DNA of 44,983 nucleotides from Escherichia phage KS_S9, in sequence record PP920551.1; one strand, 5' to 3'. The notes below the pieces were generated by a model. The model did no database searches and was not told where the DNA came from. It saw only the letters and a list, made by a program, of their open reading frames with translations. This document shows, one piece after another, positions 5,812 to 43,416 of this stretch. Made by a program: the position numbers and the translations under genes. Numbering within the stretch: position 1 is the first letter of the stretch; each line of letters starts with the position of its first letter.

Positions 5812-5840
5812 TAGTGTGTCCTCGTTGTTGGTGTGCAACC

Positions 5841-5869
5841 AATATATGCAACCAATACGAGGATTGCAA
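5841..5869 (-). promoter_or_regulatory. Sigma70-like promoter for gene 5047..5811
   Basis: On minus strand TTGCAA-N17-TATATT, with ATTGGTTGCA motif copies forming the -35 and spacer; about 25 nt upstream of ATG. Confidence 0.45.
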
Positions 5870-5959
5870 GCGAATTTTGCGATTATTTTTATCGCTGATA
5901 ATATTAGAAGCGTGAAGTCGAGCGGGTGGCCTGCTCTGCCACAATCCCAGGGGGATAGC

Positions 5960-6661
5960 ATGAAACTTACTAAAGCAGAATATGACGCGTTGCCGGAAGG
6001 TATGAAGGCGCTTTTTGTTGCCGATGGCGACGGGTATAAATCAACTTTCATGACCGCAGAAGAAGTACAGGCGGAAATCAAGGGTCTGAAAGACAACAAC
6101 GCGAAGCTGGTGAGCGAGAAGAAAGCAGAAGCTGAACGCCGCGCCGAAGCCGAGCGACTTGCGAAAGAGAAAGAGGAAGCCGCTGCGCGCAAAAATGGCG
6201 ACCTCGAAGCGATCGACAAGTCCTGGAAAGATAAGTTTGCTAAACACGAAGCAGACACAGCGGGAAAAATCGAAGCCTACCGCAAGCAGATCCACGATCT
6301 AACCATCGGCAGCGCTGCCAAAGACCTGGCATCGAAGCTATTCGGTAAGAATGCCGGCATCATGCAACGCCACGTAATGGACCGTCTGACGCTGGAAGAC
6401 GGCGAAGACGGCAGCTTGAAAGTGCGTGTCTTGCAGGATGGCAAACCGTCCGCGCTGACTATGGAAGAGTTAGAAAAAGAGTTCCGTAATAACGCCGATT
6501 TTGCATCCGTCCTGGCTGGCACGCCAGCCGGTGGCGCGCCTAGCAAACCGACGCAGGTTGTCGAAGATGTGAAGTCTAAAATTACGATGGGCCATAGCTT
6601 CGGTATCACCGATCTCACCAAACAGGCCGGTGAAATCATCGCTAAAATGGGTGACGAGTAA
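5960..6661 (+). CDS. Putative head scaffolding protein
   Basis: 233 aa from ATG 5960 (AGGGGGA RBS); A/E/K/R-rich predicted coiled coil (AEAERRAEAERLAKEKEEAAARK); directly upstream of major capsid gene. Confidence 0.6.
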   Translation: MKLTKAEYDALPEGMKALFVADGDGYKSTFMTAEEVQAEIKGLKDNNAKLVSEKKAEAERRAEAERLAKEKEEAAARKNGDLEAIDKSWKDKFAKHEADTAGKIEAYRKQIHDLTIGSAAKDLASKLFGKNAGIMQRHVMDRLTLEDGEDGSLKVRVLQDGKPSALTMEELEKEFRNNADFASVLAGTPAGGAPSKPTQVVEDVKSKITMGHSFGITDLTKQAGEIIAKMGDE

Positions 6662-6666
6662 GCAGA

Positions 6667-6690
6667 TTGCCCGCGAAAGCGGGCAATTTT
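6667..6690 (+). terminator. Hairpin/attenuator between scaffold and capsid genes
   Basis: TTGCCCGC-gaaa-GCGGGCAA followed by TTTT. Confidence 0.5.
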
Positions 6691-6758
6691 GCGAGCGCGT
6701 AAAACTAAGGTAACATTAATGCCACTGGGCGAATGCTCACAACTCAAAGGATTTCGAT

Positions 6759-7859
6759 ATGTCTTTAACAGTGTTCCAGCGTAAACTCGTTACCGCGGTT
6801 ACGCAAATGATCCCCGACAACCTGAACGTATTCAACGCTGCCGCCAATGGCGCTGTTGTTCTCGGTACTGGTGAAGTGCTGAAGGATGTTATTGAGAAAA
6901 TGTCCGTAGGCTTGATCGCCAACCTCGTTACCGACCGTAACGCCTACGCCCCTGTCGGCACTCCGGCAACCGCGAAAGTGCTGGCGCGTATGCTGACCAA
7001 CTCGGTTAACCTTTCCGCAAAAGTGGGTCCGGTAGCAATTACGAAGGCCATGATGGCTAAAATCGAAACCAACGTTAACAGCGTTGCGGCTGAGATTGCG
7101 GCGCAGGCTACTCAAGCGATTATGCTGCACTACCTGAAAGCGGGTATCGGCGCAAGTAAAGCGGCGATCGAAAGCAACGCAGCGGCAAAATACACCCAAC
7201 CGGCGCGCGTTGACGGCGTTGGCGGTCGTACCTTCCCGACCCTGGCAGACTTCCCGCTGGCGGCTTCTAAGTTCGGCGATCAGGCGTCTTTGATTAAGTC
7301 CTGGTTTATGGACGGCGTTACCTGGGCAAACTTCATTGCGTACCAGGCACTCCCTTCCGCTGAACAGGTATTCGCAATTGGCGATCTCCAGGTAATGGGC
7401 GACGGCCTGGGCCGTCGCTTCATTATCTCCGATGCCGCTGCCGATGCTATGGGTGCGGGCAACATGCTGGGTCTGGTCCCTGGCGCGGTTGCAGTTACCA
7501 CCAACGGCCTCGACATGCTGGCGCAGGAAAAAGGCGGCAACGAGAACATTGAGCGCTGGTGGCAGGGTGAGTTCGACTTCAACGTGGCTGTTAAAGGCTA
7601 CCGTCTGAAGGCGTCCGCTCGTACACCGATCGAAGGCGTCCGCTCGTTCAAGCTGTCGGATATCACCACTTCCGATAACTGGGAACTGGACCAGGGCCAG
7701 GTAGACAACGCACCGGCAACCGTGCAGGACGTTGGCGCTGTGGGTGATGGCGATACTAAAGGCCGTCGTAAGACCCAGGCAGCACAGGCAGTGCCGACCC
7801 GTCACATCAAGGAAACCGCTGGCGTACTGGTTACGCTGACGGCGACTACCGCGTCTTAA
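6759..7859 (+). CDS. Major capsid protein
   Basis: 366 aa after scaffold gene, AAGGA RBS, followed by strong terminator; position and size typical of an HK97-fold major capsid protein. Confidence 0.75.
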   Translation: MSLTVFQRKLVTAVTQMIPDNLNVFNAAANGAVVLGTGEVLKDVIEKMSVGLIANLVTDRNAYAPVGTPATAKVLARMLTNSVNLSAKVGPVAITKAMMAKIETNVNSVAAEIAAQATQAIMLHYLKAGIGASKAAIESNAAAKYTQPARVDGVGGRTFPTLADFPLAASKFGDQASLIKSWFMDGVTWANFIAYQALPSAEQVFAIGDLQVMGDGLGRRFIISDAAADAMGAGNMLGLVPGAVAVTTNGLDMLAQEKGGNENIERWWQGEFDFNVAVKGYRLKASARTPIEGVRSFKLSDITTSDNWELDQGQVDNAPATVQDVGAVGDGDTKGRRKTQAAQAVPTRHIKETAGVLVTLTATTAS

Positions 7860-7877
7860 CGGGCGCACATCCCAAAT

Positions 7878-7902
7878 GGGCGGGCTTATGCCCGCCTTTT
7901 TT
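7878..7902 (+). terminator. Intrinsic terminator after capsid gene
   Basis: GGGCGGGC-ttat-GCCCGCC followed by TTTTTT. Confidence 0.6.
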
Positions 7903-7917
7903 ATAGGAGTGAATCTA

Positions 7918-9471: not shown

Positions 9472-9893
9472 TGAGCAATACCGCAATCCGCAAAGCGCTT
9501 AACAGCGTGGTAGAAGAGTTATCGGTAAGCCTGAGCACTAGCCAGCGCCCGATCCAGGTTAACTGGGAGAACGTGAGCGGCGACCACGCAAACGGCAGCG
9601 GTGTCTACCTGGAGCCGTACCTGCTACCGGCCCCGACCCAGTTTGTGGGCTTCCAGCAGAAGGGCCGGATCTATGCTGGCGTATATCAGGTTGCCGTAGT
9701 GTTTCCCGCGGGCACTGGTACACAGTATGCGAGCGAACTGGCGGACGCCATCGCGACGTCGGATAAATGGCAGGCCGTAAGGATTTCCGGAGCGGCCTTC
9801 CAGCTTCAGGACTCGCCTTATACCAGTTCGGTGGTCGAGGACGTTGATCGCGCCCGCATCGTGGTTACAGTACCCTACACCTGTTGCGCCTGA
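9471..9893 (+). CDS. Putative tail terminator / tail completion protein (DUF4128-like)
   Basis: 140 aa immediately upstream of major tail gene; pattern YLLPAPT..., VVFPAGTG and C-terminal VTVPY resembles tail-terminator family proteins. Confidence 0.5.
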   Translation: MSNTAIRKALNSVVEELSVSLSTSQRPIQVNWENVSGDHANGSGVYLEPYLLPAPTQFVGFQQKGRIYAGVYQVAVVFPAGTGTQYASELADAIATSDKWQAVRISGAAFQLQDSPYTSSVVEDVDRARIVVTVPYTCCA

Positions 9894-9953
9894 TTTGGCG
9901 CAATTCTGAGCGTGCTGTATCATTAAACCGTATATCTAAACAGGAGCTTTATT

Positions 9954-10679
9954 ATGGGTTATCAACTTCCCAACGGGTCCAGCGTCCAGATCGGGTCCGT
10001 ATTAGGCAGCGGCATCGCGGTTACGGCAGCTACCAACGCCGCCGCGTCGATCTCCGACCTTACGCAAGGTTGCGTAATTACCTGCGCGGCTTCGCATGGT
10101 CTGGTTGTTGGCGACGTTGTTATGTTCACTAAAACCCCGTGGGTCCGAGCGCTTAACCGCGCGTTCATCGTGGGTAAAGTGGATACTAACGACGTGACGC
10201 TGGCGCGCTTCGATACTCAAGACGTCACAAAATACCCTACCGGCGCTTTCGGCGTAGGCACGCCGGGCGAAGTGGTGAAGGTGTCGAGCTTTATCGACTT
10301 CCCGTTTATCACTAACGTTGCCGTGTCTGGTGGCGACCAGCAGACCACCACCTTCCAGCCGTTGCAGGTGAATACCGCGATCAGTCTGAACACCACGAAA
10401 AACCCGTTGGTACAGACTTACACCTTCACCCACGACGAAGAAGACCCGATCCGCCCAATCCTGGAAGACCTGGACGACACACAGAAAACCACGGTGATTA
10501 AGTTCACTAACCCAGCGGCAGCAAGCGGCAAAGGTGAGATTCGTATTTACCCAGCTAAGGTATCTTTCCAGAAGATTCCGTCCGCTGAAGTAAACAACGT
10601 GGAAACGGTACAATCCACTCTGACCATGCAGTCTGATATGGTTATCTACCGTAAGGATCTGGTCGAGGCATTGTCTTGA
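9954..10679 (+). CDS. Major tail protein
   Basis: 241 aa, CAGGAG RBS, followed by terminator then G/GT chaperone and tape measure; canonical position. Confidence 0.7.
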   Translation: MGYQLPNGSSVQIGSVLGSGIAVTAATNAAASISDLTQGCVITCAASHGLVVGDVVMFTKTPWVRALNRAFIVGKVDTNDVTLARFDTQDVTKYPTGAFGVGTPGEVVKVSSFIDFPFITNVAVSGGDQQTTTFQPLQVNTAISLNTTKNPLVQTYTFTHDEEDPIRPILEDLDDTQKTTVIKFTNPAAASGKGEIRIYPAKVSFQKIPSAEVNNVETVQSTLTMQSDMVIYRKDLVEALS

Positions 10680-10709
10680 TTTGGTCGCTTAAATAGCGAG
10701 TGATAATAT

Positions 10710-11425: not shown

Positions 11426-11427
11426 TG

Positions 11428-11741
11428 AAGCGGGACAGGCGGGACGTCCCGTTTTGTCCCGCCTCTGTAAAACCGCATATCTAATCACTTTCATTGCATA
11501 AACTCAAAGCGGGACAGGCGGGACGTCCCGTTTTGTCACGCCCTGTAAATGTGCATACCTATGCGGATTTCGTGCATAAACCAAACGGGACAGAAAGCGG
11601 GACAAACAAGAGGCGGGACAAAGCGGGACAGCACCCCGTCCCCGCCAGTGCTGCCGCGGGTTTTAGCCGATCGGGACAGCGGGACAGCACCCCAGTCTTT
11701 CAGACTAGACGGGGGTCAATGGCCCCCCTCGTCTGAGACTG
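11428..11741. repeat. Iteron-like repeat region: 2x nested 35-bp palindrome, GCGGGACA direct repeats, long GC hairpin
   Basis: AGCGGGACAGGCGGGACGTCCCGTTTTGTC(C/A)CGCC at 11428 and 11508; GCGGGACA x6 at 11586-11692; hairpin 11693-11741; 11572-11741 duplicated at 39895-40065. Confidence 0.8.
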
Positions 11742-11809
11742 AATAAGGTTTGTTTTAAATTCGCTGATACAATGACCGACGGCAACTGCATAAAAAGGGG
11801 GACTGCATA

Positions 11810-32862: not shown

Positions 32863-33029
32863 TGCTTTATCCTCACTACGGCGTCAGCGCTGCCGATCAT
32901 GGAGAAGATGCCGTCGGACAGGGCGATTTCTTCGCCGTTGTTGCGAATCTCGGCAACTGTGAAATACTCGCCCAGCAATTTGGACCATACCTGCATTCCG
33001 ACTTTTACTTCGCTGGCTTTAATACGCAT
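32859..33029 (-). CDS. Small hypothetical protein (56 aa)
   Basis: ATG 33029 after terminator; MRIKASEVKVGMQVWSK...; stop TGA overlaps polymerase ATG (ATGA); not in ORF track (<60 aa). Confidence 0.3.
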   Translation of the reverse strand: MRIKASEVKVGMQVWSKLLGEYFTVAEIRNNGEEIALSDGIFSMIGSADAVVRIKQ

Positions 33030-33045
33030 TTTTCATTGTCCTATT

Positions 33046-33069
33046 AAAAAGCCCGCATTAAGCGGGCTT
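33046..33069 (-). terminator. Intrinsic terminator after SSB gene (minus strand)
   Basis: GCCCGC-attaa-GCGGGC hairpin followed on minus strand by TTTTTAAT. Confidence 0.5.
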
Positions 33070-33087
33070 GAATAGTGGGCTTTGCCC

Positions 33088-33867
33088 TTAACGGCGGCGT
33101 TTACGTGGCGCTTCGTCTTCGTCGTCGTCCTCATCTTCGTCATCGCGTGGCTTACGACGTTTGCGAGGTTTCTCATCTTCGTCTTCGTCGTCGTCATCGC
33201 GGCGCTTGGATTTTTTGGACTTGCGCGGCTTGTCGTCTTCGTCATCGTCATCACGACGTTTTGACTTTTTGGACTTACGCGGGCTTTCGTCTTCGTCATC
33301 GTTGTCCAGGTCTTCGTCGGAACATGAAGACCCGCCACCTCCGAAGGCTTCGCCGTCTTCACGGAATCGCAGACCCAGCAAGCCAGCCCCGAGACCCTTG
33401 CCGTTGGTGTTGTTCCACGCCCAAATATCCAGCGACACGTTGCAATAACAACCGGAGTAGATCTCCTGGCCTTCGATCTCGTCGCCTTCTACGGTCAGAC
33501 CTTGTTCAGTCTGCTTCTCGCCGAGTGACGTCTGAATGATCGGCTGTTTGAACGATTTGGCGTTGATGTACAACATGCCTTCAAATTCTTCGGTTACTTC
33601 GTCGCGCTCGTCACCGTCGCGAACTGCGCATTCCTTAGAATCCTGGGCGTAGTGACGGTCCATCCACTTATCGGCATTCTTCTCGGATTTCAGCTTATCG
33701 GTGAGCACTGCGCGCGCTGCCGCTTCCACTTTGTCCACCTGCGGATCTTCTTTATCCAGAAGAATAACGGCACGGTATGCCGGTTTTTGACCATCCTGTT
33801 TAGGGGTATCACGTTCCCAAATTTTAAGGAAGCATACGCGCACATTTTTCAGGTTGACTTTAGCCAT
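33088..33867 (-). CDS. Single-stranded DNA-binding protein (DUF2815-like) with repetitive basic/acidic C-terminal tail
   Basis: 259 aa from ATG 33867 (GAGGAA RBS): MAKVNLKNVRV...YINAKS...YSGCY matches the DUF2815 phage SSB pattern; C-terminus has repeats of KPRKSKKSKRRDDDDED. Confidence 0.6.
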   Translation of the reverse strand: MAKVNLKNVRVCFLKIWERDTPKQDGQKPAYRAVILLDKEDPQVDKVEAAARAVLTDKLKSEKNADKWMDRHYAQDSKECAVRDGDERDEVTEEFEGMLYINAKSFKQPIIQTSLGEKQTEQGLTVEGDEIEGQEIYSGCYCNVSLDIWAWNNTNGKGLGAGLLGLRFREDGEAFGGGGSSCSDEDLDNDDEDESPRKSKKSKRRDDDDEDDKPRKSKKSKRRDDDDEDEDEKPRKRRKPRDDEDEDDDEDEAPRKRRR

Positions 33868-33957
33868 TTTCCAATTCCTCATTTTCACATGTATCGGGGT
33901 TATTGGAGGCCACCCCGTTCGGCTTGGTTGCCAATTTACTTGGTTGCGCTTAAGCGG

Positions 33958-34200
33958 TCAAGCATTTTCATTAAAAAGATTTCTGGTCACGTAGTTGGTA
34001 GCGTTCTCGGTCCAGCTTAACGGCGGGCGGTCGATGTTCTTCTCCACCCAATCGACGGCAACTTCGCTATAGCCGTCATCCAGCCAGCGGGTCGGATGGC
34101 GAATCATCCACGCCACCATTAACACGCCTTGCACGCAATGCAGGATAAAGCCCAGCGCTCCGAGCAAAAACATCAATAAGATTGCGAATACTTTATTCAT
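33958..34200 (-). CDS. Small membrane protein
   Basis: 80 aa, GAGGA RBS; N-terminal TM segment FAILLMFLLGALGFILH. Confidence 0.5.
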   Translation of the reverse strand: MNKVFAILLMFLLGALGFILHCVQGVLMVAWMIRHPTRWLDDGYSEVAVDWVEKNIDRPPLSWTENATNYVTRNLFNENA

Positions 34201-35623
34201 TGCTTAAGTCCTCGTCAGTAGCTTCCGACCACGCAGGGCGCGGGTCGTCGATTGGTGCTAACACCGGTTTGGCTGGTGCGCGCGTGATTTTATCACACAG
34301 CTTCGCCCACACTTTCGGTTTTTCGTCCTTCAGTACCTTCTCGGCATCCGTAGGGCTGAGCAATGTTTCTTTGTACATCACATCGCGCTTGATCCGGGCC
34401 TTCGTGAAGATTTCAATAACTTCGCTCTCGTCCGCCCACTTACGGATCCCTTCCTTACCGGCAACCATCTTGAGGCCCAGCGATTCGCCATCGCCCGCCA
34501 TTACCGCTTTGAATACCGCGGACTCGATAGCTTTGATGTGCTGGCGCATTGCGTCCAGGCCTTCATAAGCCTTGCGCAGTTCCGCAGCGCTCATAGCGCC
34601 TGGGGCCGCTTCTTTCTTGCCACGCTTCGCACGTCGTGCCGCTTTGCGGGCTTCGCGGGCCATATTGCGGTCGTGATTGGCGCATTCTTCCTCTGTCGCA
34701 ATACTTACGTCGTCGCCCAGGTCTTCGTCTGTTGCCGTTGGTGGGGTCATCGTGTCGATTGCAGCCTTAGCGCGGGCGCTACACTGATCCGCAAATCTGC
34801 ACCACTGACACGCATCAACGCTCGGTCGGAAGTCGGCACGGGTGAGTCCCTTTTTGCCGCGGGCGTACGCTTCCAGGGCGGCGATAGCACGCTTTGACGC
34901 AAACTTAGCGAATATCTCCAGGGCTTCTACCGAAATATCCCACTCCGACGCCCCGCCGCAATACGGCTGGAAGATAACCAGGCGCACGGTCGTGATGTCG
35001 TACATGGATTGCAGCTTGCGCAGCAGGCCCAGCGCATACAACATAAGCTGTTTGTTTTCTTTCGCCTCGACCTTATGCCGCCCCGTCTTCAGGTCGCCAA
35101 CAATCAGCATGTACGTGCCGTCGGTCTTCTTCATGACCATGACCATATCCGCAGTGCCGAACGTCTTAACCCGGTTGCCGTCGATCTCGAAGCCAGAGTG
35201 TAGGACGCGGGTGAGATCGGCGCGCATCTCAAGCTGAACAAACTCCGCCACTTCGAGGAGCGGTCGCCAGTGGTCGATGTACGCGTCGCACTGTTTCACC
35301 ATGTCGTCGTTGACCAGTACGCCGCCTTTCGGTGCTTTCGGGTGCGCCTTTACCGGCCCCTTACCTTCGTTCTCGACGTAGCACCCTTTGTACGTTTTCG
35401 CGGTTATAAGCTTCTCACCGGCGATAATGCGGTTGAGCACGACTTCCGATACTGTGTGCATACTCGTACCGTTAATAGCCGCTTGCCCGGATTCGTTCGG
35501 GATACCCTGTTCTACCACCAGGGCCGCGGGACACCCCATCCATTTTTTAGCACCGGATGGCCCGAGTAATGAATGTTCCGTATTACTACCGGATTGTGTT
35601 TTGCGCTTCGGTTTAATCGCCAT
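34193..35623 (-). CDS. PD-(D/E)xK exonuclease (DUF2800 / Cas4-RecB-like) with C-terminal Cys cluster
   Basis: 476 aa; N-terminal HSLLGPSGAKKWMGCPAA, and CQWCRFADQC near residue 280 consistent with an Fe-S cluster nuclease of the DUF2800 type. Confidence 0.65.
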   Translation of the reverse strand: MAIKPKRKTQSGSNTEHSLLGPSGAKKWMGCPAALVVEQGIPNESGQAAINGTSMHTVSEVVLNRIIAGEKLITAKTYKGCYVENEGKGPVKAHPKAPKGGVLVNDDMVKQCDAYIDHWRPLLEVAEFVQLEMRADLTRVLHSGFEIDGNRVKTFGTADMVMVMKKTDGTYMLIVGDLKTGRHKVEAKENKQLMLYALGLLRKLQSMYDITTVRLVIFQPYCGGASEWDISVEALEIFAKFASKRAIAALEAYARGKKGLTRADFRPSVDACQWCRFADQCSARAKAAIDTMTPPTATDEDLGDDVSIATEEECANHDRNMAREARKAARRAKRGKKEAAPGAMSAAELRKAYEGLDAMRQHIKAIESAVFKAVMAGDGESLGLKMVAGKEGIRKWADESEVIEIFTKARIKRDVMYKETLLSPTDAEKVLKDEKPKVWAKLCDKITRAPAKPVLAPIDDPRPAWSEATDEDLSNE

Positions 35624-35811
35624 TATTCCACCCTTGAAAATTGAGCAATGTAATAATCGTGTTCAACATTGGCCCGCTTCGCGGCATTGTTCATGGTAGC
35701 CGCCAGTCCTCGAGCTTGCATCCAGCAGCAATTCCAGTTTTGATTCATAACGATTTCTGGTTGCTCGTCGCCGGTGATACGGCAACGAAATAAAACAAAG
35801 AATATAGCCAT
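35623..35811 (-). CDS. Hypothetical protein
   Basis: 62 aa ORF, ATG 35811 adjacent to stop of upstream gene; weak evidence. Confidence 0.3.
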   Translation of the reverse strand: MAIFFVLFRCRITGDEQPEIVMNQNWNCCWMQARGLAATMNNAAKRANVEHDYYIAQFSRVE

Positions 35812-36063
35812 TTATTTTGTCTCCCAGCGGTCAATTGTTTTTGCTTCGGATGCAACTGCGAAGCGAACATATTCAAGATTGGAATCCGCCCAAATATAAA
35901 AGTCGGGGTTAGTAAAGGTGGTGCGCTTAATTTGCGCGGGGGTATTGCGGCGTTTGTCTATTACGGCAACGCGTGACTGAAAGCTGCCGATGCGTTCGAA
36001 TAGCCAATAATAAGGGCGTTGGTCGCGGGAGTCCACCGCCTCGATTAGCGTGAAGCGTGCCAT
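35812..36063 (-). CDS. Hypothetical protein
   Basis: 83 aa, GAGGA RBS, first gene after terminator 36076-36103. Confidence 0.45.
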   Translation of the reverse strand: MARFTLIEAVDSRDQRPYYWLFERIGSFQSRVAVIDKRRNTPAQIKRTTFTNPDFYIWADSNLEYVRFAVASEAKTIDRWETK

Positions 36064-36075
36064 TGTCTCGTCCTC

Positions 36076-36103
36076 TAAAAAGAGGCCCGCAGATTAGCGG
36101 GCC
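36076..36103 (-). terminator. Intrinsic terminator after acidic repeat protein gene (minus strand)
   Basis: Minus strand GGCCCGC-taatct-GCGGGCC followed by TCTTTTT. Confidence 0.5.
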
Positions 36104-36111
36104 GGAATATA

Positions 36112-36741
36112 TTAATCTTCCAGTTCGAAATAGGTTTCGACGATTTCTTTTAAATCTTTGTGGAAGTCTTCAACGTCGTCATCTTCCAGCTTGGCGATTG
36201 ATTTGATTTCGAACGCGTCCAGCAGATCATCAAATTCGTCGTTCGCGTCGTCGTCATCACCGCCTGCGATAATCGCGGCATACTGTTTGATCTCGTCGCG
36301 CATCTCCGCCAGCGGATCGGCATCTTTGTCCAGCAGATCATCAAATTCGTCGTTCGCGTCGTCGTCATCACCGCCTGCGATAATCGCGGCATACTGTTTG
36401 ATCTCGTCGCGCATCTCCGCCAGCGGATCGGCATCTTTCTTGCCTTTGCCTTTTGCCGGTGCTTTTTTAGACTTAGCCGGTTTTTCGGCTTCGGCGTCTT
36501 CGTCGTCGTCATCTTCTACGACTTCTTTTTTGGCCTTACCTTTCGCCGGTGCTTTTTTAGATTTAGCCGGTTTTTCGTCTTCGACTTCATCGTCGTCATC
36601 TTCGACAACTTCTTTTTTGGCCTTAGACGGCTTCTTATCTTCCTGTTTACCAACGGCCGCGCCAACGGTTTCATAATGCTTTGCAATGGTTTCCAGTGCT
36701 ACTACGCCGCGAGTGATCAGGTTTACGATTTGCTCAAACAT
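36112..36741 (-). CDS. Early acidic repeat protein (Lys-rich and poly-Asp/Glu blocks); function unknown
   Basis: 209 aa from ATG 36741 (GGAGA RBS); contains a perfect 37-aa tandem duplication (DADPLAEMRDEIKQYAAIIAGGDDDDANDEFDDLLD) and KPAKSKKAPAKGK repeats; monocistronic. Confidence 0.6.
   Translation of the reverse strand: MFEQIVNLITRGVVALETIAKHYETVGAAVGKQEDKKPSKAKKEVVEDDDDEVEDEKPAKSKKAPAKGKAKKEVVEDDDDEDAEAEKPAKSKKAPAKGKGKKDADPLAEMRDEIKQYAAIIAGGDDDDANDEFDDLLDKDADPLAEMRDEIKQYAAIIAGGDDDDANDEFDDLLDAFEIKSIAKLEDDDVEDFHKDLKEIVETYFELED
36220..36441. repeat. Near-perfect 111-bp tandem duplication inside gene 36112..36741
   Basis: Unit starting CAGCAGATCATCAAATTCGTCG at 36220 repeats at 36331; identical through ...GGCATCTTT. 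Confidence 0.85.
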
Positions 36742-36937
36742 GGTATATCTCCGATTGGTTAAGTTTAGGTGTCGGCAGTTAACTTCGTCGGTGGCCTTAA
36801 CATATTGCCAGGTTACGCGTTCTCCCGTTCGGGTAGTGGACCTGGTTATATAATCACGGTTGGGAATCCTGACACTTCGATCCGGCCCCTGCGTTGCCCC
36901 TCTCCAGTTTGCGTCCTGCATCCTGTCGACGGAGTGA

Positions 36938-36967
36938 ATGATAGATTGGTTGCAGGATGGGTGTCAA
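36938..36967 (-). promoter_or_regulatory. Strong sigma70-like early promoter (leftward)
   Basis: Minus strand TTGACA-N18-TATCAT with GCAACCAAT motif in the spacer; ~190 nt leader to ATG 36741. Confidence 0.5.
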
Positions 36968-36978
36968 CAACTAATTTC

Positions 36979-37012
36979 AAAAAAAAAGCGCCGAGGCAAA
37001 ATGCGACGGCGC
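36979..37012 (-). terminator. Putative orphan terminator-like hairpin (minus strand) in divergent control region
   Basis: GCGCCG...CGGCGC stem with 13-nt loop, followed on the minus strand by nine T; no obvious upstream minus-strand gene. Confidence 0.35.
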
Positions 37013-37143
37013 TAACCAATAAGAGACAATGAGACGGGAATTATTATTACACGCGTGCGCACCCGTTTCAATATCCAAAGGATTTGACACCGTGCAGTTT
37101 TGGGTGTAGTTTCGTTGGTCATTAACCAACTGAGGGCAGAGCA

Positions 37144-37473
37144 ATGAATGTAAACGACGCAATCGAAATGTTAACGAAGACTGTTTGCAGTGAGACAAGC
37201 CGGTCATGGGCATACACCGATGCCGTGGGGGCTGTGTTATTTGAAATCGAACGACTGCGGCTTACCGAAAAAGAATTGCGCGCCCGGCTGGAATTACTCA
37301 ACGGTACGGCGGCCAGCAAGCTGCAAAAGCACAATGAAGAAATGGAAGAATACAAAAAGCAGGTTATCCGTTTGCGCGACGAAGGGAAATCATGGGCGAT
37401 GATTGCAGAGCTAACCGGAATTAATCAGAGCACCGTGCGATCCTGGGTACGCAATAATAAAACCTCTAAGTAA
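37144..37473 (+). CDS. HTH DNA-binding protein (putative transcriptional regulator)
   Basis: 109 aa, GAGGG RBS; C-terminal helix-turn-helix-like segment SWAMIAELTGINQSTVRSWVRN; first gene of rightward unit. Confidence 0.55.
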   Translation: MNVNDAIEMLTKTVCSETSRSWAYTDAVGAVLFEIERLRLTEKELRARLELLNGTAASKLQKHNEEMEEYKKQVIRLRDEGKSWAMIAELTGINQSTVRSWVRNNKTSK

Positions 37474-37483
37474 GGCAACGGCA

Positions 37484-39748
37484 ATGAGCTTAATTAAATT
37501 CGCAGTAACACGACCCGCTAAAAAAGGCGAAAAAGCCAGGGCGGAAAACTACCAGATGACAACCGATGAGTTTTTCGAATTTATCAATGACGCGAAAGAA
37601 ATTTCCTCGGTGCATATCAACAAGACGGAAGATAAAGCCGAGTATGCGCGCCGCAAGCGTAAGGCCGATGGCATCGTGGCTTATACCAGTGATGGGCTGC
37701 GCCGCAAGACCAGTGCCGTGGACCGCTCGATCCTGTTCTTCGATATTGACCGCACCGACACCCGCACCCTGCGCCGCTGCCGTAAGGCGTTCATCGACGC
37801 GGGTCTGGAACACGTATTTCACACCACCACCGGCGACCGCCACCCGCTGAAGGGCGGCACGCGTTGCGCCCGTTTCCTGGTGCTCACTGACAAGCCTGTA
37901 CCGGCTGAAGACCTGGGCCGCGTCCAGTATGCACTATTACACCAACTGGGCCTGTCAGATGTGGACTTCGACGACTGTACAAAAGACACAAACCGCCTTA
38001 TGTACCTGCCACACCAACAGTCTGTTATCAAATGCCATTACGGAAAGCGCGCCCGTGTCCGTCGTCTGCTTCGCCTGGCCGATAAGCTGGGAATGGAAAA
38101 AGAGGAAGTACGCCGCGAACTAACCCAGGGCGATGACGGCGTGGCGGACGGTATTCTGGATTGGTGCTTCCAGGCGGGATTCGAACCGCTGTCGTCCGGT
38201 CGTGGTTATGAAGTGCCGTGCCCAAACGAACACCTGCATAGCGGCGAAGGGTCCACCGCTATCATGGTTAAGGATGGCGAGATCCGTTTCAAGTGTATGC
38301 ACACCGGCAACGAGTGTTGCTCGGAACTGAACAGACACCAGCACCTGGCGCTACGTCTTATCGGGATCCCGGACCACCTGAACGTCGAACCGCACAACAT
38401 GTCACGTAAGCAAATCGCCGCCATCCTCCCAGGACTGGACGACGAGGAAGTGGAATCGTGCTATGCGCATATCGTTGATGCGGTCGGAGACGGCGACGAG
38501 TACGGCGGATGTACGGACGCAGACCTGGACAACGAGCCGGTTGCACTGTTCAGCAAGCACGACCCGATCATCGAGGGGTTGATTAACTTTAAATCGACCT
38601 GGTATCTTGCCGGTGAGTCGAACATCGGTAAGTCGTTCTATGTGCTGGGCCAGATGGCGTCCGTATCTGCCGGTATCCCGTTTGGCGGTGCGAAGGTCGT
38701 CCAGTGCCATAACTTCTATTTCGACGCGGAAGGTGGTGAAGCCTCCAACCAGCGTAAGGAAGCATTGCAGATCAAATATGAGCACGACCTGGACAAGCTG
38801 CACATTATAGACCTGCAATCTCGCGGCTGGGATATCACCAGCAAATCAGGACTGCGTGAAGTTATCAGCTTTATCAATCGCACCGCTAACGGCGAACCGG
38901 TTGGCCTGGTGGCGTTCGACTCACTCAACCAGACTGTTGCGTTGCGGTCCGCCGATGCCAAACCGTTCGACGAGAACAACGCCAGCGATATGGGCGAAGT
39001 TGTCAAGGCGCTGAAGGCCATTGCGGAAAATACAGGCGGCAGTGCGGGCATCATCCACCACCCGGCGAAGGGTGCAAACGGCAGCAGAACGCCACGCGGA
39101 TCTGGCGCGCTTCATGGTGCTGTCGATTCTGCGTTCTTCCTGGAACAGCCGGACGACAACCAGCCAGGCCAATTGAACTTGTATCACGAAAAGGCACGTA
39201 ACGGCATCAAGCAAGCGCCACGAGGCTTCGTCCTGCTCAAGTGCAAGGTTAAGGTGGATCTCCGCAAGTCCGAAGCGTTCGAAGCCCACCAGTCCACCAG
39301 CACCGGGCCTGACTTCGGCGACGTGGTTGCCGGTTGGGACGTCAAGCCGATCGCATCCACGCCACGCGACGAGACTCTCTACCTCGTACCGGTCGCCCTG
39401 GCACCATTCGCCATCGAACAGGCAAAGGCCACTGGCAAAGCAGCAGTTAAGGAAGAGAACGCCGCAGGACCGCGCAACGAAAAAGAGAAAGTGCTTTATG
39501 CGGCACTGGAAAAACTGATGGAAGATAACCCGGACCATACCGGATTCAGTAAATCGGCAATTGTCCGCCAGGCTGGACTTGCGAAAGGTGGCACATCGAC
39601 GAAGGCAATAGACGATATGGTGGAGCGCGGCGTGCTCGGTTTTTATACAGATCCGCACACCGGGGCCATCTATGGGTCGTCGAATATCGTCATCAAAACG
39701 AATATACCCATCACGCTTTCGGCGACCGACGATGACCTGAAAGATTAA
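37484..39748 (+). CDS. Primase-helicase-like replication protein (P-loop NTPase C-terminal domain)
   Basis: 754 aa; Walker A GESNIGKS and Walker B-like GLVAFDSLNQ in C-terminal half; N-terminal half has acidic DxD-containing segments (FFDIDRTD) as in primase domains. Confidence 0.6.
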   Translation: MSLIKFAVTRPAKKGEKARAENYQMTTDEFFEFINDAKEISSVHINKTEDKAEYARRKRKADGIVAYTSDGLRRKTSAVDRSILFFDIDRTDTRTLRRCRKAFIDAGLEHVFHTTTGDRHPLKGGTRCARFLVLTDKPVPAEDLGRVQYALLHQLGLSDVDFDDCTKDTNRLMYLPHQQSVIKCHYGKRARVRRLLRLADKLGMEKEEVRRELTQGDDGVADGILDWCFQAGFEPLSSGRGYEVPCPNEHLHSGEGSTAIMVKDGEIRFKCMHTGNECCSELNRHQHLALRLIGIPDHLNVEPHNMSRKQIAAILPGLDDEEVESCYAHIVDAVGDGDEYGGCTDADLDNEPVALFSKHDPIIEGLINFKSTWYLAGESNIGKSFYVLGQMASVSAGIPFGGAKVVQCHNFYFDAEGGEASNQRKEALQIKYEHDLDKLHIIDLQSRGWDITSKSGLREVISFINRTANGEPVGLVAFDSLNQTVALRSADAKPFDENNASDMGEVVKALKAIAENTGGSAGIIHHPAKGANGSRTPRGSGALHGAVDSAFFLEQPDDNQPGQLNLYHEKARNGIKQAPRGFVLLKCKVKVDLRKSEAFEAHQSTSTGPDFGDVVAGWDVKPIASTPRDETLYLVPVALAPFAIEQAKATGKAAVKEENAAGPRNEKEKVLYAALEKLMEDNPDHTGFSKSAIVRQAGLAKGGTSTKAIDDMVERGVLGFYTDPHTGAIYGSSNIVIKTNIPITLSATDDDLKD

Positions 39749-39861
39749 ATCCTGCGCGCATTGGTTGCCGATATGGGGATTACCATATCGCTAAAAGGTT
39801 AAATTTTGCGCGCATTGGTTGCCATTTTGAGTGTTTTTATCAGGTAGTATTGGTTGCCGTG
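39745..39861. repeat. Three direct repeats carrying TTGGTTGCC immediately downstream of primase-helicase gene
   Basis: TTAAATCCTGCGCGCATTGGTTGCCGAT at 39745, TTAAATTTTGCGCGCATTGGTTGCCATT at 39799, GTATTGGTTGCCGTG at 39847. Confidence 0.75.
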
Positions 39862-39894
39862 TATTGTGAATATAGTGAATAGTTATGCAGTTTT

Positions 39895-40065
39895 GGTGCA
39901 TAAAGTAAGCGGGACAGAAAGCGGGACAAACAAGGGGCGGGACAAAGCGGGACAGCACCCCCGTCCCGCCCCGGATGGCGCGGCCTGGAGAGGAGCGGGA
40001 CAGGCGGGACAACCCCCAGTCTTTCAGACTAGACGGGGGTCAGCGGCCCCCCTCGTCTGAGACTG
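39895..40065. repeat. Second copy of GGGACA-iteron plus hairpin element
   Basis: GCGGGACA x6 followed by hairpin CAGTCTTTCAGACTAGACGGGGGTCAGCGGCCCCCCTCGTCTGAGACTG; near-identical to 11572-11741 (loop differs TCAATGG vs TCAGCGG). Confidence 0.8.
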
Positions 40066-40282
40066 AATAAAATCCGGGGATTGCAAAATACACGGCAGCA
40101 CGATGCGAAGTGCTGGCGAGGATGAACTAGGCAACCAATACGAGTTGCATTATGCTGAGTGAAAAATGCAGTTTGCAGTCACAGCAGATAGCGATCAACT
40201 TTTTCATGCGCGTGATTAATATTGGTTGCATTCGGCCTGGCACCCGGCTATATTGGTCGCACACCAACATGAGGACTGATCG

Positions 40283-40588
40283 ATGAGAGCACTAATCTGG
40301 AATTACTCACTGGCCCTGGCAAAGCTGAACGAAGCGAAAGCGCTAAACGGCAACGTAGACCGTGCGCGCCAGTTTGCGACACTGGCATACCAGTCAATCA
40401 TGTGTGCGCTAGACGATATGGACGCCGGCATGGATGACCTGGGTCCGCTGCGTAAGGCAATCCATGAATACGCGCTGGCATTCTCCCGTGAGCGCCTGGC
40501 TTATCGCTTCGGTATTGGCGAGAAGGCAGTGACAAACGTCGCCAGGATTAAAGCCCAGCGTGAGCTATTCGCCCAGCTTGCGAAATAA
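40283..40588 (+). CDS. Hypothetical protein
   Basis: 101 aa, GAGGAC RBS, first ORF after the repeat-rich region. Confidence 0.5.
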   Translation: MRALIWNYSLALAKLNEAKALNGNVDRARQFATLAYQSIMCALDDMDAGMDDLGPLRKAIHEYALAFSRERLAYRFGIGEKAVTNVARIKAQRELFAQLAK

Positions 40589-40597
40589 GGGGCCAAA

Positions 40598-40873
40598 ATG
40601 GGACGTAGACGAGCAAAACAGCTTTCGTGGCATATTCCCCTGCATTGCATACGAATATGGGCGGAGAATGCAGTTGAGGGAGAATCGGTATTCTGGTGCT
40701 ATCGCGACGACGTAAAGCCGTTGACGCAGACTCGCTACTTGCACCAGTTCGCAGCACAACATGATTTCAGGGTGCGGACTTCCTTGCAACCAATGGGGAT
40801 TCGTATTACATTACGCCGGAAGCCAGCCGTTGAGCGGGTAGGCAAACACTGGAGACTGCGCAAATGTTCTTAG
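40598..40873 (+). CDS. Hypothetical protein
   Basis: 91 aa, AAGGGG RBS. Confidence 0.45.
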   Translation: MGRRRAKQLSWHIPLHCIRIWAENAVEGESVFWCYRDDVKPLTQTRYLHQFAAQHDFRVRTSLQPMGIRITLRRKPAVERVGKHWRLRKCS

Positions 40874-40994
40874 ACGGAATATCGCAGGCGTTTATCGACC
40901 TGCATATGTGCGTACTTGACTACGAACAAAACGGCATCGCTACGGTATGCGATGGTGACACAAAATCAATTGACGAGATTGAGGAGACTGAGCA

Positions 40995-41567
40995 ATGAAA
41001 TTACTATTCCGCCGTAAGCGCGATGGCTACATCATGAAGCCGATCCAGACCATGGCTAAATACGTGCGATTGCGCCACGTTCACAGCGGCATTGAGTGTA
41101 TGACGACTAAGGCAAATCTGCCGGAGGGGTACGACGTACTCACACATGATATTGAGCGCGGCGATGTTCTGCGTGACATTCGCGACGGGCAGCTATGGAT
41201 CGTGGAACGCACCTACCGGAACGGCCTGCGTATGCAGACCCGCAAGGGCGGCGTAGTGGGTAACGTTCAGAGGGGTATGACTTACTTCGGGCTGGTCAAC
41301 TACGAGCGCGTGGGGCGCAAGTATAGCCTCCGCAAACGCCAGCCACATGAGCGCGTGGAGTTCCGCAAGTCGCAGCCAGCCTATGCCACCTACGACGTGA
41401 GCAAAGTTATGGACCCGATCCGCCAGGCGACGCATGAGATTATTAATCGCTTCGATGCCGTGACGAACGCACAGCGCCATGCGCAGGAATACGGTGTGGG
41501 ATTCATCCGGGTCGAACCCAACGGCAGCATGAAGGCCATCGACCCGCGCTCGGTGATTCTGAAATGA
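40995..41567 (+). CDS. Hypothetical protein
   Basis: 190 aa, GAGGAG RBS. Confidence 0.5.
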   Translation: MKLLFRRKRDGYIMKPIQTMAKYVRLRHVHSGIECMTTKANLPEGYDVLTHDIERGDVLRDIRDGQLWIVERTYRNGLRMQTRKGGVVGNVQRGMTYFGLVNYERVGRKYSLRKRQPHERVEFRKSQPAYATYDVSKVMDPIRQATHEIINRFDAVTNAQRHAQEYGVGFIRVEPNGSMKAIDPRSVILK

Positions 41568-41786
41568 GTGCGTCTATCCGTGATATGCTCATGCACAACC
41601 GCTTTGAGATAGGCGGTCGGGTGTTTCGCAATTACTTCGTGGCGCGTGCATGGGCGCGCCATATTGGCAAACCGGAAGGGGCAATTCGATGCTATACGTC
41701 TTCGCGGTAGTATGTGGCGGTAGTCTGGCGGCCCTGGTGCTGTTGGCGTCGGTTATTAGTCTGGTTAAATACCTATGGAGCAGATT

Positions 41787-42074
41787 ATGATTCATGATGT
41801 GATTTATTGGTTTGGTATGGCCAGCATGTTATGCCTGGTTACGGGAGTGCTGGGCGCAATATGGGTATTCTTGGTATGGCCCGCCGTGGAAGCTGCCAGC
41901 ATTACCCGGATGACGTTCCAGATATACAAGCGCCGTGGAATCACGGAGCACCCGACCAGGTTGCGCATGTGGTGGCTGTGGTATCGCGATATGATCGGCG
42001 GGCGAATGTTCGAGGCCGTCCGATCGGAAGGGTGGGAGTGGAAAGGCGTCGGCAAGTGGTCCATTTTCGATTAA
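41787..42074 (+). CDS. Membrane protein (hypothetical)
   Basis: 95 aa from ATG 41787; TM segment WFGMASMLCLVTGVLGAIWVFLVW; followed by terminator hairpin. Confidence 0.4.
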   Translation: MIHDVIYWFGMASMLCLVTGVLGAIWVFLVWPAVEAASITRMTFQIYKRRGITEHPTRLRMWWLWYRDMIGGRMFEAVRSEGWEWKGVGKWSIFD

Positions 42075-42092
42075 TTATGCAAGCGTGATATA

Positions 42093-42126
42093 GTCCCAGT
42101 GAGCTAAAACTTACTGGGACTTTTTT
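42093..42126 (+). terminator. Hairpin with T-run before the holin gene
   Basis: GTCCCAGT-N12-ACTGGGAC followed by TTTTTT, ending at the holin ATG. Confidence 0.4.
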
Positions 42127-42417
42127 ATGGATAAGCTAAACGAGTGGTTATTTGCCCTCGCATGTCTGGCAGGCGGCTTCGTAGGCGCACGCATTCACGG
42201 CGAGGCTACGAAAGGGCCGCTAAACTTCGTGTTATATATCGTAGTTGGCTTCCTGTGTGCCATCTTTGGTGCGCCAGCTATCGCCGAGTGGGCTGGCTTA
42301 TCTGGCGAGCGCACTGTCGCCGGTTTGGGCTTCGTAACTGCAATCTTCTGGATGACAATAGCAGCCCGGATCAGGGAGACTATTGAGTCGTTCCGACTTC
42401 CGGGGGGCGCAAAATGA
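42127..42417 (+). CDS. Putative holin
   Basis: 96 aa with 2-3 predicted TM segments, charged C-terminus; directly upstream of endolysin. Confidence 0.5.
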   Translation: MDKLNEWLFALACLAGGFVGARIHGEATKGPLNFVLYIVVGFLCAIFGAPAIAEWAGLSGERTVAGLGFVTAIFWMTIAARIRETIESFRLPGGAK

Positions 42418-42659
42418 TTATCTCCGTCCTGTTGTTTGTTATCATAGGGGCTTCGTCCCTGTTTAATGTGTATGCGCCGTCCGTCCAGGATGGCATTTTA
42501 GGCCGGGTGTTATATCTGCTAACGGCGATGATCTGCGTTATCGGATTGTTGCAAACGGGAGACGTATCAGACACCACCTGGACCGCGTTAATCTGGCTGT
42601 TTGCATTGCGCACACTGCGTAATGCTGTTTTGAATGGGGTAAAACATGCGATTCAGTGA
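42414..42659 (+). CDS. Putative holin or antiholin (second membrane protein)
   Basis: 81 aa, GGGGGG RBS, 2 hydrophobic segments; ATGA overlap with preceding gene, overlaps endolysin start. Confidence 0.5.
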   Translation: MIISVLLFVIIGASSLFNVYAPSVQDGILGRVLYLLTAMICVIGLLQTGDVSDTTWTALIWLFALRTLRNAVLNGVKHAIQ

Positions 42660-43137
42660 CAACGGTCTAAGATTTACGGCAGCATGGGAGGCTTTCAGCC
42701 CGGTGCCGTATTTCGCGACCAAGAAAGAGCAGGCCCGCGGCCTGTACACTTGGGGTTATGGTCATACCGGCACTAATCCGCCTCGAAGCATTACCCGCGA
42801 GGAAGCGCTGGCACTGCTCAAGCGCGATGTGGCGTATGCTGAGGACTGGGTGAACAAATACGCACATCCGAGCATTAACCAGGCGCAATTCGACGCGCTG
42901 GTGGACCTGGTAATCAACGCCGGTCCGGGTCCGATCGTACCGGATGACGTCGCGAATGATTTCGATGATGCGGTCCGCCTGGGCGACTGGGCGAAGGTAC
43001 GTGCTACTCTGCCGCAGTTCCGCAAGCAAGGTGGCGAAGTGCTTAAGGGTCTGGTGCGCCGTGCAATCGGCAGACAGGCGTTGTTTGATGGTAAGCAGTG
43101 GGACGTTGCCGAGAAAATCGGTCGTAACGCTGCATAA
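42646..43137 (+). CDS. Endolysin (T4-lysozyme-like muramidase, GH24-like)
   Basis: 163 aa; pattern LYTWGYGHTG...QFDALVDLVINAGPG resembles phage lysozyme family. Confidence 0.8.
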   Translation: MRFSDNGLRFTAAWEAFSPVPYFATKKEQARGLYTWGYGHTGTNPPRSITREEALALLKRDVAYAEDWVNKYAHPSINQAQFDALVDLVINAGPGPIVPDDVANDFDDAVRLGDWAKVRATLPQFRKQGGEVLKGLVRRAIGRQALFDGKQWDVAEKIGRNAA

Positions 43138-43153
43138 TACGAGGTGACACGAT

Positions 43154-43321
43154 ATGTTAAAAAGTATTCTTGATCATAATGCGGACGCGCTTGCCGCACT
43201 GGCTAAAACCGAAGACCCAGGCGCACGCGCTATCATCGCGGACTCTATCAACCACGCCGGGGTCTTCGATGCGAAGCTGCCAAGCCCACCACCGCAGGAG
43301 GAATCTGGCCCCGCAGCGTAA
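43154..43321 (+). CDS. Small hypothetical protein (55 aa)
   Basis: GAGGTGA RBS, ATG 43154; followed by terminator; not in ORF track (<60 aa). Confidence 0.35.
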   Translation: MLKSILDHNADALAALAKTEDPGARAIIADSINHAGVFDAKLPSPPPQEESGPAA

Positions 43322-43327
43322 ACAATT

Positions 43328-43352
43328 AAGCCCGGAATTAACCGGGCTTTTT
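43328..43352 (+). terminator. Intrinsic terminator
   Basis: AGCCCGG-aattaa-CCGGGCT followed by TTTT. Confidence 0.55.
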
Positions 43353-43416
43353 ATTGCTTGACTCGCAACCAACACAGGGGCCATACTGCAACCAATCAAC
43401 TGGAGGAGTAATCAAG

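Follow-up and report, generated by a model that had tools for sequence, protein, structure and literature searches.

Dispersed copies of a ten-base word over predicted promoters of the virulent siphophage KS_S9 as putative operators of a phage-encoded helix-turn-helix protein

The genome of Escherichia phage KS_S9 (PP920551.1; 44,983 nucleotides, analysed in full and called the window here), a Dhillonvirus, carries many copies of a short word, ATTGGTTGCA, which lie mostly between genes and over predicted promoters. This word most likely serves as an asymmetric operator box, recognized by a sequence-specific DNA-binding protein that the phage itself encodes, and the most likely binder is the product of g50, a helix-turn-helix (HTH) protein of 109 aa. 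On balance, we consider it probable, though only by a little, that the boxes are dispersed operators of a g50-type regulator, which would mainly repress early and middle promoters, its own included. We infer from sequence comparison that the predicted promoters fire, that g50 binds the box and that the effect is repression. Gene control of this kind is ordinary for phages; this example is undescribed.

Exact matches to the inner eight bases of the word (TTGGTTGC/GCAACCAA) were found 20 times on the two strands, compared with a mean of 1.88 (standard deviation 1.40, maximum 7) in 100 dinucleotide-preserving shuffles, none of which attained 20 copies. The excess over shuffled sequence suspected in a first-pass annotation of this DNA is thus real. 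With up to one mismatch allowed, the 10-base ATTGGTTGCA occurs 18 times versus 3.07 expected. Measured against a 3rd-order Markov expectation, no 8-mer family is more over-represented than the box, either in this genome or in any other Dhillonvirus examined. Intergenic sequence makes up 5.9% of the genome and wholly contains 16 of the 20 copies (binomial P = 7.5e-17), which gives a density of 6.07 per kb between genes versus 0.094 per kb in coding sequence, a 64-fold excess. The coding copies occur at about the chance rate, and the pattern therefore reflects enrichment between genes and not avoidance within them. All 18 positions given in the first-pass annotation exist, 0-7 bases away from where they had been placed; the 8-mers start at 5835, 5848, 21945, 25425, 25437, 27335, 27352, 30309, 33924, 33940, 36946, 39761, 39815, 39850, 40131, 40222, 43365 and 43388. 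Its statement that no copy lies inside coding sequence has to be corrected. Copies at 16481, in the minor tail gene g22, and at 40786, in g54, had been missed, and two of the listed copies cover last codons, at 25437 (3 bases from the end of a HAD-like open reading frame, ORF) and at 30309 (16 bases from the end of the VRR-NUC gene). The g22 copy, GTTGGTTGCC on the minus strand at 16480-16489, reads GCGACCAA in phage Ioannina and is probably a chance copy.

An alignment of 22 copies reads A-TTGGTTGC-(A>C), with inner eight positions that are partly fixed by how the copies were selected; directly beyond the 10 bases the information content falls to about zero. The box is asymmetric. Eight of the 20 copies are on the plus strand and 12 on the minus strand, while 14 are co-directional with the gene and six are reversed. 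Direct pairs are spaced 12, 13, 16 and 17 bases. T5-like strand-specific nick sites were rejected, as the copies occupy both strands and mostly follow the gene direction. A sigma54 promoter was also rejected, since GG and GC of the box are separated by only 2 bases instead of 10. A scan of the whole window against Rfam gave no family at gathering score, and an RNA element is therefore unsupported.

KS_S9 belongs to the HK578/SO-1-like virulent E. coli siphophages. Megablast of positions 30000-42000 matched 180 phage records, and 123 of them, almost all Escherichia/Shigella Dhillonvirus, covered at least 80% of the query at 90-95% identity; the top match was phage GeorgBuechner of the BASEL collection (93.2%). 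Collinearity with the 44.3-kb GeorgBuechner genome extends from the gene for the small terminase through to the final one, and the window is therefore a complete genome. The 66 genes were mapped onto the window from GeorgBuechner. Structural genes occupy 44-24135 on the plus strand, a replication/modification module 24163-37122 on the minus strand, and a rightward arm with the HTH protein g50, the primase-helicase, small ORFs, lysis genes and a metallophosphatase 37144-44910. No integrase, repressor or lysogeny module is present in the annotation of any relative checked.

A sigma70 weight matrix was scored at every position on both strands, with +1 taken 7 bases past the -10 hexamer. Ten of the 45 best sites genome-wide possess a box within -40 to +3, and all ten face a downstream gene. 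The box-bearing sites, ten or eleven in number, score 8.6-13.9 bits, the 99.99th percentile of genome positions being 8.6; with -35- and -10-like hexamers 16-18 bases apart and co-directional with a gene, they are predicted promoters of the sigma70 type. They serve replication, early and moron genes. All 18 promoter-associated boxes lie between -40 and +3 of a predicted promoter, as is typical of repressor operators, and fall into three recurrent registers: -40 to -31 over the -35 hexamer, -23 to -14 in the spacer abutting the -10 hexamer, and -9 to +3 over the -10 hexamer and +1. A co-directional box can supply TTGCAx as the -35 hexamer, and a reversed box preceded by T supplies TTGCAA. In bacterial promoters, repressor sites lie between -35 and +10 and activators bind upstream of -35, and a pure promoter element is expected in one register and one orientation. 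A site confined to -40 to +3, in any orientation, is the pattern expected from an operator that competes with polymerase. The first-pass annotation had proposed a phage-specific promoter/operator family, possibly bound by the HTH protein at 37144-37473. This is supported in that the boxes are mostly intergenic, overlap ten or eleven sigma70-like promoter cores, are conserved as footprints and are absent from the sister subfamily, and in that the HTH protein is specific to the clade and its DNA-binding domain nearly invariant; the operator part of the proposal stands, while a promoter element as such does not fit both orientations, three core positions and only four to six copies that double as -35.

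Four minus-strand promoters, those of g07, g30, g34 and g48, had already been recognized in the first-pass annotation, and all four are present, except that the one at 27355>27327 has TTGCAT instead of TTGCAA. The promoter of the Nmad5 gene g07 (5047-5811) lies at 5834-5869 and reads TTGCAA(5869-5864)-17-TATATT(5846-5841), with two co-directional boxes at 5847-5856 (-22 to -13, in the spacer) and 5834-5843 (-9 to 0). The g30 (DUF6378) promoter at 25417-25446, TTGCAA-18-TATATT (25446>25417), contains the perfect palindrome TGCAACCAA-ccta-TTGGTTGCA at 25424-25445, exactly as first described. Its two halves are a minus-strand box in the spacer (25424-25433, -23 to -14) and a reversed, plus-strand box (25436-25445, -35 to -26) that provides the -35 hexamer as cTTGCAAcc. 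At the g34 promoter (27327-27360, minus; TTGCAT-17-TATATT, 27355>27327), one box at 27351-27360 (-40 to -31) forms the -35 hexamer and another at 27334-27343 (-23 to -14) fills the spacer. The leftward early promoter in front of g48 (36938-36967, minus; TTGACA-18-TATCAT, 36967>36938) is the best sigma70 match of the genome and bears one opposite-orientation box in its spacer (36945-36954, -23 to -14).

Three further promoters on the minus strand show the same arrangement. The promoter of g27 (21671-21889), which encodes a lipoprotein or superinfection-exclusion-like protein, lies at 21920-21953 (TTGCAA-17-AATACT); its box at 21944-21953 (-40 to -31) is the -35 hexamer, and a degenerate copy, TTGGTTGA, is located near +1. 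The promoter of g39, a Lar/endonuclease VII-like gene, at 30284-30317 (TTGCTG-17-TATAGT) has boxes at 30308-30317 (-40 to -31) and 30296-30305 (ATTGGTCGCA, -28 to -19), both over the last codons of the VRR-NUC gene g40. The promoter of g43, which encodes an Enc34-type single-stranded DNA (ssDNA)-binding protein, at 33923-33961 (TTGACC-17-TAAATT) carries two opposite-orientation boxes, at 33939-33948 (-22 to -13) and 33923-33932 (-6 to +3).

On the plus strand, the g53 promoter at 40221-40261 (TTGCAT-17-TATATT), with a leader like that of g07, has boxes at 40221-40230 (-40 to -31, forming the -35 hexamer) and 40252-40261 (ATTGGTCGCA, -9 to 0). A promoter at 43358-43396 (TTGACT-18-CATACT), directly after a terminator at 43328-43349, precedes a 26-aa hydrophobic ORF and the metallophosphatase gene g64, and bears two opposite-orientation boxes at 43364-43373 (-30 to -21) and 43387-43396 (-7 to +2). 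A candidate internal promoter in g54 (40784-40812, plus; TTGCAA-17-TACATT) has its -35 hexamer formed by a reversed box at 40785-40794 (-34 to -25). This box and the -10 hexamer are kept in six genomes, including Ioannina at 85% local identity, and the box could be a chance coding copy. The rightward promoter of g50 (37084-37112, plus; TTGACA-17-TAGTTT) is near-consensus and is followed at 37114-37130, about +1 to +15, by a degenerate inverted pair, GTTGGTCATTAACCAAC. The opposite-orientation boxes were also considered as antisense or independent promoters and rejected, as no usable -10 hexamer was read at 16-18 bases from them.

The boxes that form -35 hexamers would also fit the opposite sign of control. 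A phage factor, g50 or another, might bind at -40 to -31, replace or join region 4 of sigma70 there, and activate promoters with weak -35 hexamers, as in the middle-promoter system of T4 with its MotA box; secondary or autoregulatory roles would then fall to the copies in the spacer and at +1. The co-directional box indeed sits exactly at -40 to -31 in the g27, g34, g39 and g53 promoters, with TTGCAx as -35 and a good -10 hexamer 17 bases on, two further promoters use the reversed box as cTTGCAAcc, and g50 scores on Sigma70_r4_2 (26.8 bits, cut-off 25.7). We regard such a positive element as unlikely. Most copies are off the -35 hexamer, and nine lie in the spacer or over the -10 hexamer and +1, where a bound protein should block polymerase. 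Seven promoter-associated boxes are opposite-oriented, and promoters with consensus-like -35 hexamers (TTGACA, TTGACC, TTGACT) bear boxes too. The Sigma70_r4_2 match overlaps equally good matches to the generic HTH_23 and HTH_28, and the fold matches are generic, with E > 0.1. T4 MotA boxes are similar in being phage-specific words of about 9 bp at the -35 position of promoters that keep a sigma70 -10 hexamer, a geometry shown by four to six copies here. However, they have a fixed position (-30) and orientation and need AsiA, whereas only four copies in KS_S9 are co-directional at -40 to -31 and the others are at -23 to -14, at -9 to +3 or reversed; g50 is without MotA similarity, and no AsiA-like partner turned up in analyses that included no search aimed at one.

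Six box-bearing intergenic regions were aligned between the window and GeorgBuechner, HK578, CHD5UKE2, jat, SO-1 and Ioannina. In all six the boxes are invariant and the flanks variable. The two boxes of the g07 promoter are fixed in seven genomes, while the bases between them, the sequence beyond and the downstream gene (Nmad5, a pol III beta-like moron or others) differ. The g27 box is kept even in Ioannina despite differing flanks, and the g30 palindrome is invariant in six genomes. Both boxes of the g34 promoter are retained in eight sequences, including a divergent metagenomic relative, with 7-8 variable bases between them, and those of the g39 promoter are likewise kept in eight sequences. 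In L009 and L011, two metagenomic relatives that differ in their terminase and in the order of the late region, ATTGGTTGC is among the most over-represented 9-mers and is found at equivalent promoters, with two overlapping boxes in the spacer of the g48-type promoter. In the same two relatives, a full box, GCAACCAAT, lies between the -10 hexamer and the start codon of the g50 homologue, at the place of the degenerate pair in the window. Complete Dhillonvirus genomes examined contain 19-22 copies and partial loci 3-12 per 10 kb. The boxes are thus kept across the genus and in divergent relatives while their flanks drift, which answers the question of conservation raised in the first-pass annotation.

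This pattern bears on an account without any binding factor, in which the copies are remnants of one duplicated promoter cassette and the word is the retained part of a good promoter. The g07 and g53 promoters do share a longer stretch, TATATTGGTYGCACACCAACA, and TTGCA resembles a -35 hexamer. Against it, the information content is about zero just beyond the 10 bases, the box appears in three registers relative to the -10 hexamer and in both orientations, and paired boxes stay fixed while the bases between them drift; we find this account very improbable.

The sister subfamily Guernseyvirinae provides a further contrast. Two of its phages possess a total of 2-3 copies each, despite a syntenic replication module and a primase-helicase with 43-44% identity, and the subfamily is also without a g50-type HTH protein. 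The box might belong to an enterobacterial transcription factor or nucleoid protein of the host that is exploited by the phage, with g50 unrelated to it. All known hosts are Enterobacterales, and the box is in parts similar to the CytR octamer, GTTGCATT, and to the halves (TTGGT/ACCAA) of GntR-family boxes, a resemblance that serves as a lead only. Against a host factor, the conserved core is ATTGGTTGC, not the CytR octamer, and bases past GCA are not conserved; GntR-type sites are TTGGT-N3-ACCAA dyads, whereas here one of 11 loci is a dyad and is arranged the other way round (ACCAA-N4-TTGGT); Guernseyvirinae, which infect the same hosts and have homologous replication genes, do without the box; and a full-text search for the sequence gave primers only. 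A host site therefore seems improbable to us. CytR, PdhR and other GntR-type boxes were rejected on geometry.

The candidate regulator g50 (37144-37473, plus) is the first gene of the rightward operon and lies directly 5' of the primase-helicase gene. In a Pfam scan of 34 products, a sequence-specific DNA-binding domain was recognizable only in g50, whose residues 65-105 match HTH_23 (30.0 bits, cut-off 24.6), HTH_28 (27.0, cut-off 25.0) and Sigma70_r4_2, in each case only slightly above the cut-off; the HTH assigned to this product in the first-pass annotation is thereby confirmed. An AlphaFold2 model (mean predicted local distance difference test score, pLDDT, 83.6) consists of a short N-terminal helix, a 58-residue helix (22-79) and a C-terminal HTH (84-91, 95-108). 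The segments 65-79, 84-91 and 95-108 have pLDDT above 90 and form a three-helix HTH of the HTH_23, homeodomain-like kind. The model suggests a coiled-coil dimer with two adjacent HTH heads, and such a dimer would match box pairs with spacings of 12-17 bases, whatever their relative orientation. Compared with the PDB, the model gave only generic HTH matches (IstA, SdiA, GerE, resolvases), all with E > 0.1, on which the HTH superposes at 0.4-1.9 A over 33-44 residues. Generic tri-helical HTHs (HTH_23/HTH_28, the N-terminal HTH of insertion sequence transposases, LuxR/GerE and sigma70 region 4) match the C-terminal 45 residues above cut-offs; in difference to those proteins, g50 is without a catalytic, receiver or sigma region 2 domain. 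A sigma factor was rejected because only residues 65-103 match Sigma70_r4_2 and no region 2 match was found, and a transposase or resolvase because Pfam and PHROGs gave no catalytic domain, apart from the label that the family itself bears. Homologues of g50 are called 'transposase', 'resolvase' or 'recombination nuclease inhibitor gamma' (Gam) in databases, labels that are unsupported beyond the HTH.

The g50 family is small and restricted to these phages. Only 35 clusters among 5.8 billion were found at E <= 0.01, nearly all on contigs of at most 45 kb with a Dhillonvirus-like gene layout, and IMG/VR adds Dhillonvirus contigs only. Almost no variation is seen in the C-terminal 60 residues, whereas the N-terminal 40 have been replaced repeatedly. 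The most divergent allele, of the HK578/CHD5UKE2 type, has 47% identity over the matched C-terminal half and retains the recognition-helix residues N94, S96, T97, R99 and W101, and phages with this allele carry the same box. The co-conservation of box and g50 is consistent with g50 as the binder and is not covariation evidence. The hypervariable N-terminal third (37144-37270, 40 codons) exists in at least six unrelated versions among relatives, which suggests diversifying selection or module swapping on a partner-contact surface.

In the mechanism that we favour, g50 would be transcribed first in the rightward direction, from TTGACA-17-TAGTTT. With rising amounts of the protein, the boxes would be filled and host polymerase kept off the box promoters, turning down the leftward early/replication operons, the small-gene and lysis arm on the right, both counter-oriented morons of the structural arm and g50 itself. 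Box-free promoters before structural genes would stay on, and the net effect would be a Cro-like early shut-off across about ten promoters. The full box in relatives, or the degenerate pair in the window, placed 3' of the -10 hexamer of the g50 promoter, is the layout that would be expected for autoregulation.

Several points weigh against repression by g50. The four to six boxes that supply a TTGCAx -35 hexamer also fit an activating or recruiting role, and four boxes, between 39760 and 40139 and all ending in GCC, lie outside recognizable promoters. The box-free sites of the structural arm are weak predictions, and two of them (10681, 20613) run directly into terminators. The presence of g50 coincides with that of the box, but so does that of all genus core genes, and no g50 relative with both a changed recognition helix and a changed box was found by tblastn on phages, in the 5.8-billion-protein set or in IMG/VR. 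Several small proteins without a detectable domain are possible alternative binders. Binding, footprint or transcription-start data on any Dhillonvirus were not found in the literature.

The box-free promoter-like sites before structural genes are those at 44929-44957 (before terS), 9895, 10681, 20613 and 11733, and the sites at 10681 and 20613, two of the four with a TTGG-type -35 hexamer, may be non-promoters. Three of the box-free sites have gaTTTGGYG in common at the -35 position (44925-44934, 9891-9900, 10677-10686). The 5' half of the box likewise reads TTGGT, and the likeness could be a coincidence or mark a weak half-site.

A bolder version of positive control is that g50 is a small sigma-region-4-like adaptor, which would redirect host RNA polymerase to the TTGCAx box promoters and also organize a replication origin beside its own operon through the GCC-type boxes. 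We consider this a long shot. If true, the transcription programme of a virulent siphophage would be coupled to its DNA replication by a single protein of 109 aa and a single 10-bp word, and the hypervariable N-terminus of g50 would be the surface contacting host or phage partners.

Among known systems, the operators of P1 C1 are the closest in their working to g50 repression through dispersed boxes. Both are short and asymmetric, occur many times genome-wide, single or paired, and cover promoters of unrelated operons; one phage repressor binds all operators in P1, and a single binder is proposed here. However, P1 is temperate and C1 maintains lysogeny, the P1 operator is 17 bp long and of unrelated sequence, and no similarity was detected between C1 and the 109-aa helix-plus-HTH protein g50. 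The stoperators bound by gp71 of mycobacteriophage L5 are less alike. They are dozens of asymmetric 13-bp sites in short intergenic gaps, recognized by an HTH repressor, but they have one orientation relative to transcription and block elongation in a temperate phage, whereas the Dhillonvirus boxes are of mixed orientation (14 of 20 co-directional) and occupy promoter cores instead of transcribed spacers. The functional likeness to lambda Cro lies in an early-expressed HTH protein that acts on operators over early promoters and its own, lowering early transcription. Lambda Cro and CI differ in binding 17-bp dyads at two loci, compared with an asymmetric 10-bp word at about 11 loci, of which only 25424-25445 is a dyad.

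Dhillonviruses are among the most often isolated E. coli siphophages, are included in the BASEL reference set and are under engineering for therapy. Published regulatory annotation is limited to the HK578 record, with three generic promoter matches, and the SO-1 record, with its repeat regions. In the searchable literature, no description of the box or of the function of g50 was found, the motif string matched only primers, and nothing was found published on the timing of Dhillonvirus gene expression. One 10-bp word at essentially every non-structural promoter, together with a named candidate regulator, amounts to a testable map of transcription units, and box-bearing promoters with g50 supplied in trans offer a handle for engineering. 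If confirmed, this would be a virulent-phage case of the dispersed-operator strategy, which is known mainly from P1, L5, phiC31 and other temperate phages.

The boxes outside promoters are clustered 3' of the primase-helicase gene. Three of them, all ATTGGTTGCC on the plus strand (39760-39769, 39814-39823, 39849-39858), lie 5' of an array of GCGGGACA iterons, and no convincing promoter was found at 39760-39858 in the sigma70 matrix scan. A single reversed copy of ATTGGTTGCC on the far side of the array (40130-40139, minus) is likewise without a recognizable promoter. GCC-type boxes occupy the place equivalent to 39760-39858 in L009 and L011. This cluster raises the question of whether the box is primarily a replication element, with g50 as an origin-binding protein, the 39760-40261 cluster by the GCGGGACA iterons as the origin and the dispersed copies as secondary. 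Six or seven of 22 copies lie within 500 bases 3' of the primase-helicase gene and flank the iteron array, which is annotated as repeat region B in the SO-1 record, and the four copies nearest to the array form a distinct subtype, ending in GCC, that is outside promoters and kept in relatives. Even so, 15 copies are spread over 38 kb, each within a promoter core, and an origin should have no need of sites at the -10/+1 positions of unrelated genes. No box at all is present in the duplicate iteron region, A (11426-11745), and the spacings in 39760-40261 (54, 35, 281, 91 and 31 bases) are irregular, unlike those of origin iterons. We consider a primary role in replication improbable.

The iteron GCGGGACA is itself a second over-represented word, with 16 copies versus 1.5 expected, and its arrays lie in two non-coding regions that are homologous and each about 170 bp long. 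Region A (within 11426-11745) lies between the tail chaperone genes and the tape-measure gene, and region B (39900-40070) 3' of the primase-helicase gene. Both have GGGACGTCCC palindromes and end in the same hairpin (gacgggggtca..ggcccccctcgtc), both are annotated in the SO-1 record, as repeat regions A and B, and Rfam gave nothing at either. A pair of separate iteron regions by a primase-helicase is reminiscent of ori and crr in satellite phage P4. The iteron regions of KS_S9 are a candidate replication origin. The GeorgBuechner coding sequences bas16_0018 and bas16_0052 lie wholly on the iteron arrays (11572-11736 and 39875-40060 in the window); their peptides are similar because the DNA is duplicated, and they are therefore probably not genes.

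Some features around the box promoters were also noted. A terminator-like hairpin, GGGTGTCC-ggttt-GGACGCCC followed by TTTTT (27297-27326, minus), begins 2-3 bases past the -10 hexamer of the g34 promoter. Transcripts from this promoter would miss part of the 5' arm of the hairpin and escape termination, and read-through from upstream would stop. A comparable overlap of terminator and promoter exists at 44918-44957, before terS. Between the two divergent early promoters, a promoter-like TTGAAA-17-AATAAT (37071>37043, minus) is followed about 30 bases on by a hairpin and nine T (about 37010>36975), which implies a leftward transcript of about 60 nucleotides containing a degenerate box, ATTGGTTAGC. 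Since the start of the annotated g49 (36 aa, 37012-37122) lies upstream of this promoter, g49 is a doubtful gene. Directly 3' of the promoter at 43358-43387, the unannotated 26-codon ORF MARKDIWVLAIWTTAAFIGMVICELI (43418-43498) has a strong GGAGGAG ribosome-binding site and is kept in five relatives. The counter-oriented moron slot of the structural arm (5047-5811, minus) holds the Nmad5 (nucleotide modification associated domain 5) gene in KS_S9 (Pfam E = 1e-55), and a pol III beta-like gene or others in relatives, behind the corresponding two-box promoter.

Another over-represented word, AGAAAGAG(C)/CTCTTTCTC, occurs in 6-10 copies versus 0.3-0.7 expected in HK578, jat, SO-1 and Ioannina (L002, L004, L005 and L006) and is not among the top words of the window. 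Tandem repeats are found within two genes of the leftward module. In g48, the first gene of the leftward early operon, whose product is without a known domain, a perfect 111-bp x2 tandem repeat adjoins a 90-bp x2.2 repeat (36217-36625), and the product length ranges from 143 to 269 aa among phages. A 54-bp x2.3 repeat is found at 33178-33302, in the ssDNA-binding gene g43.

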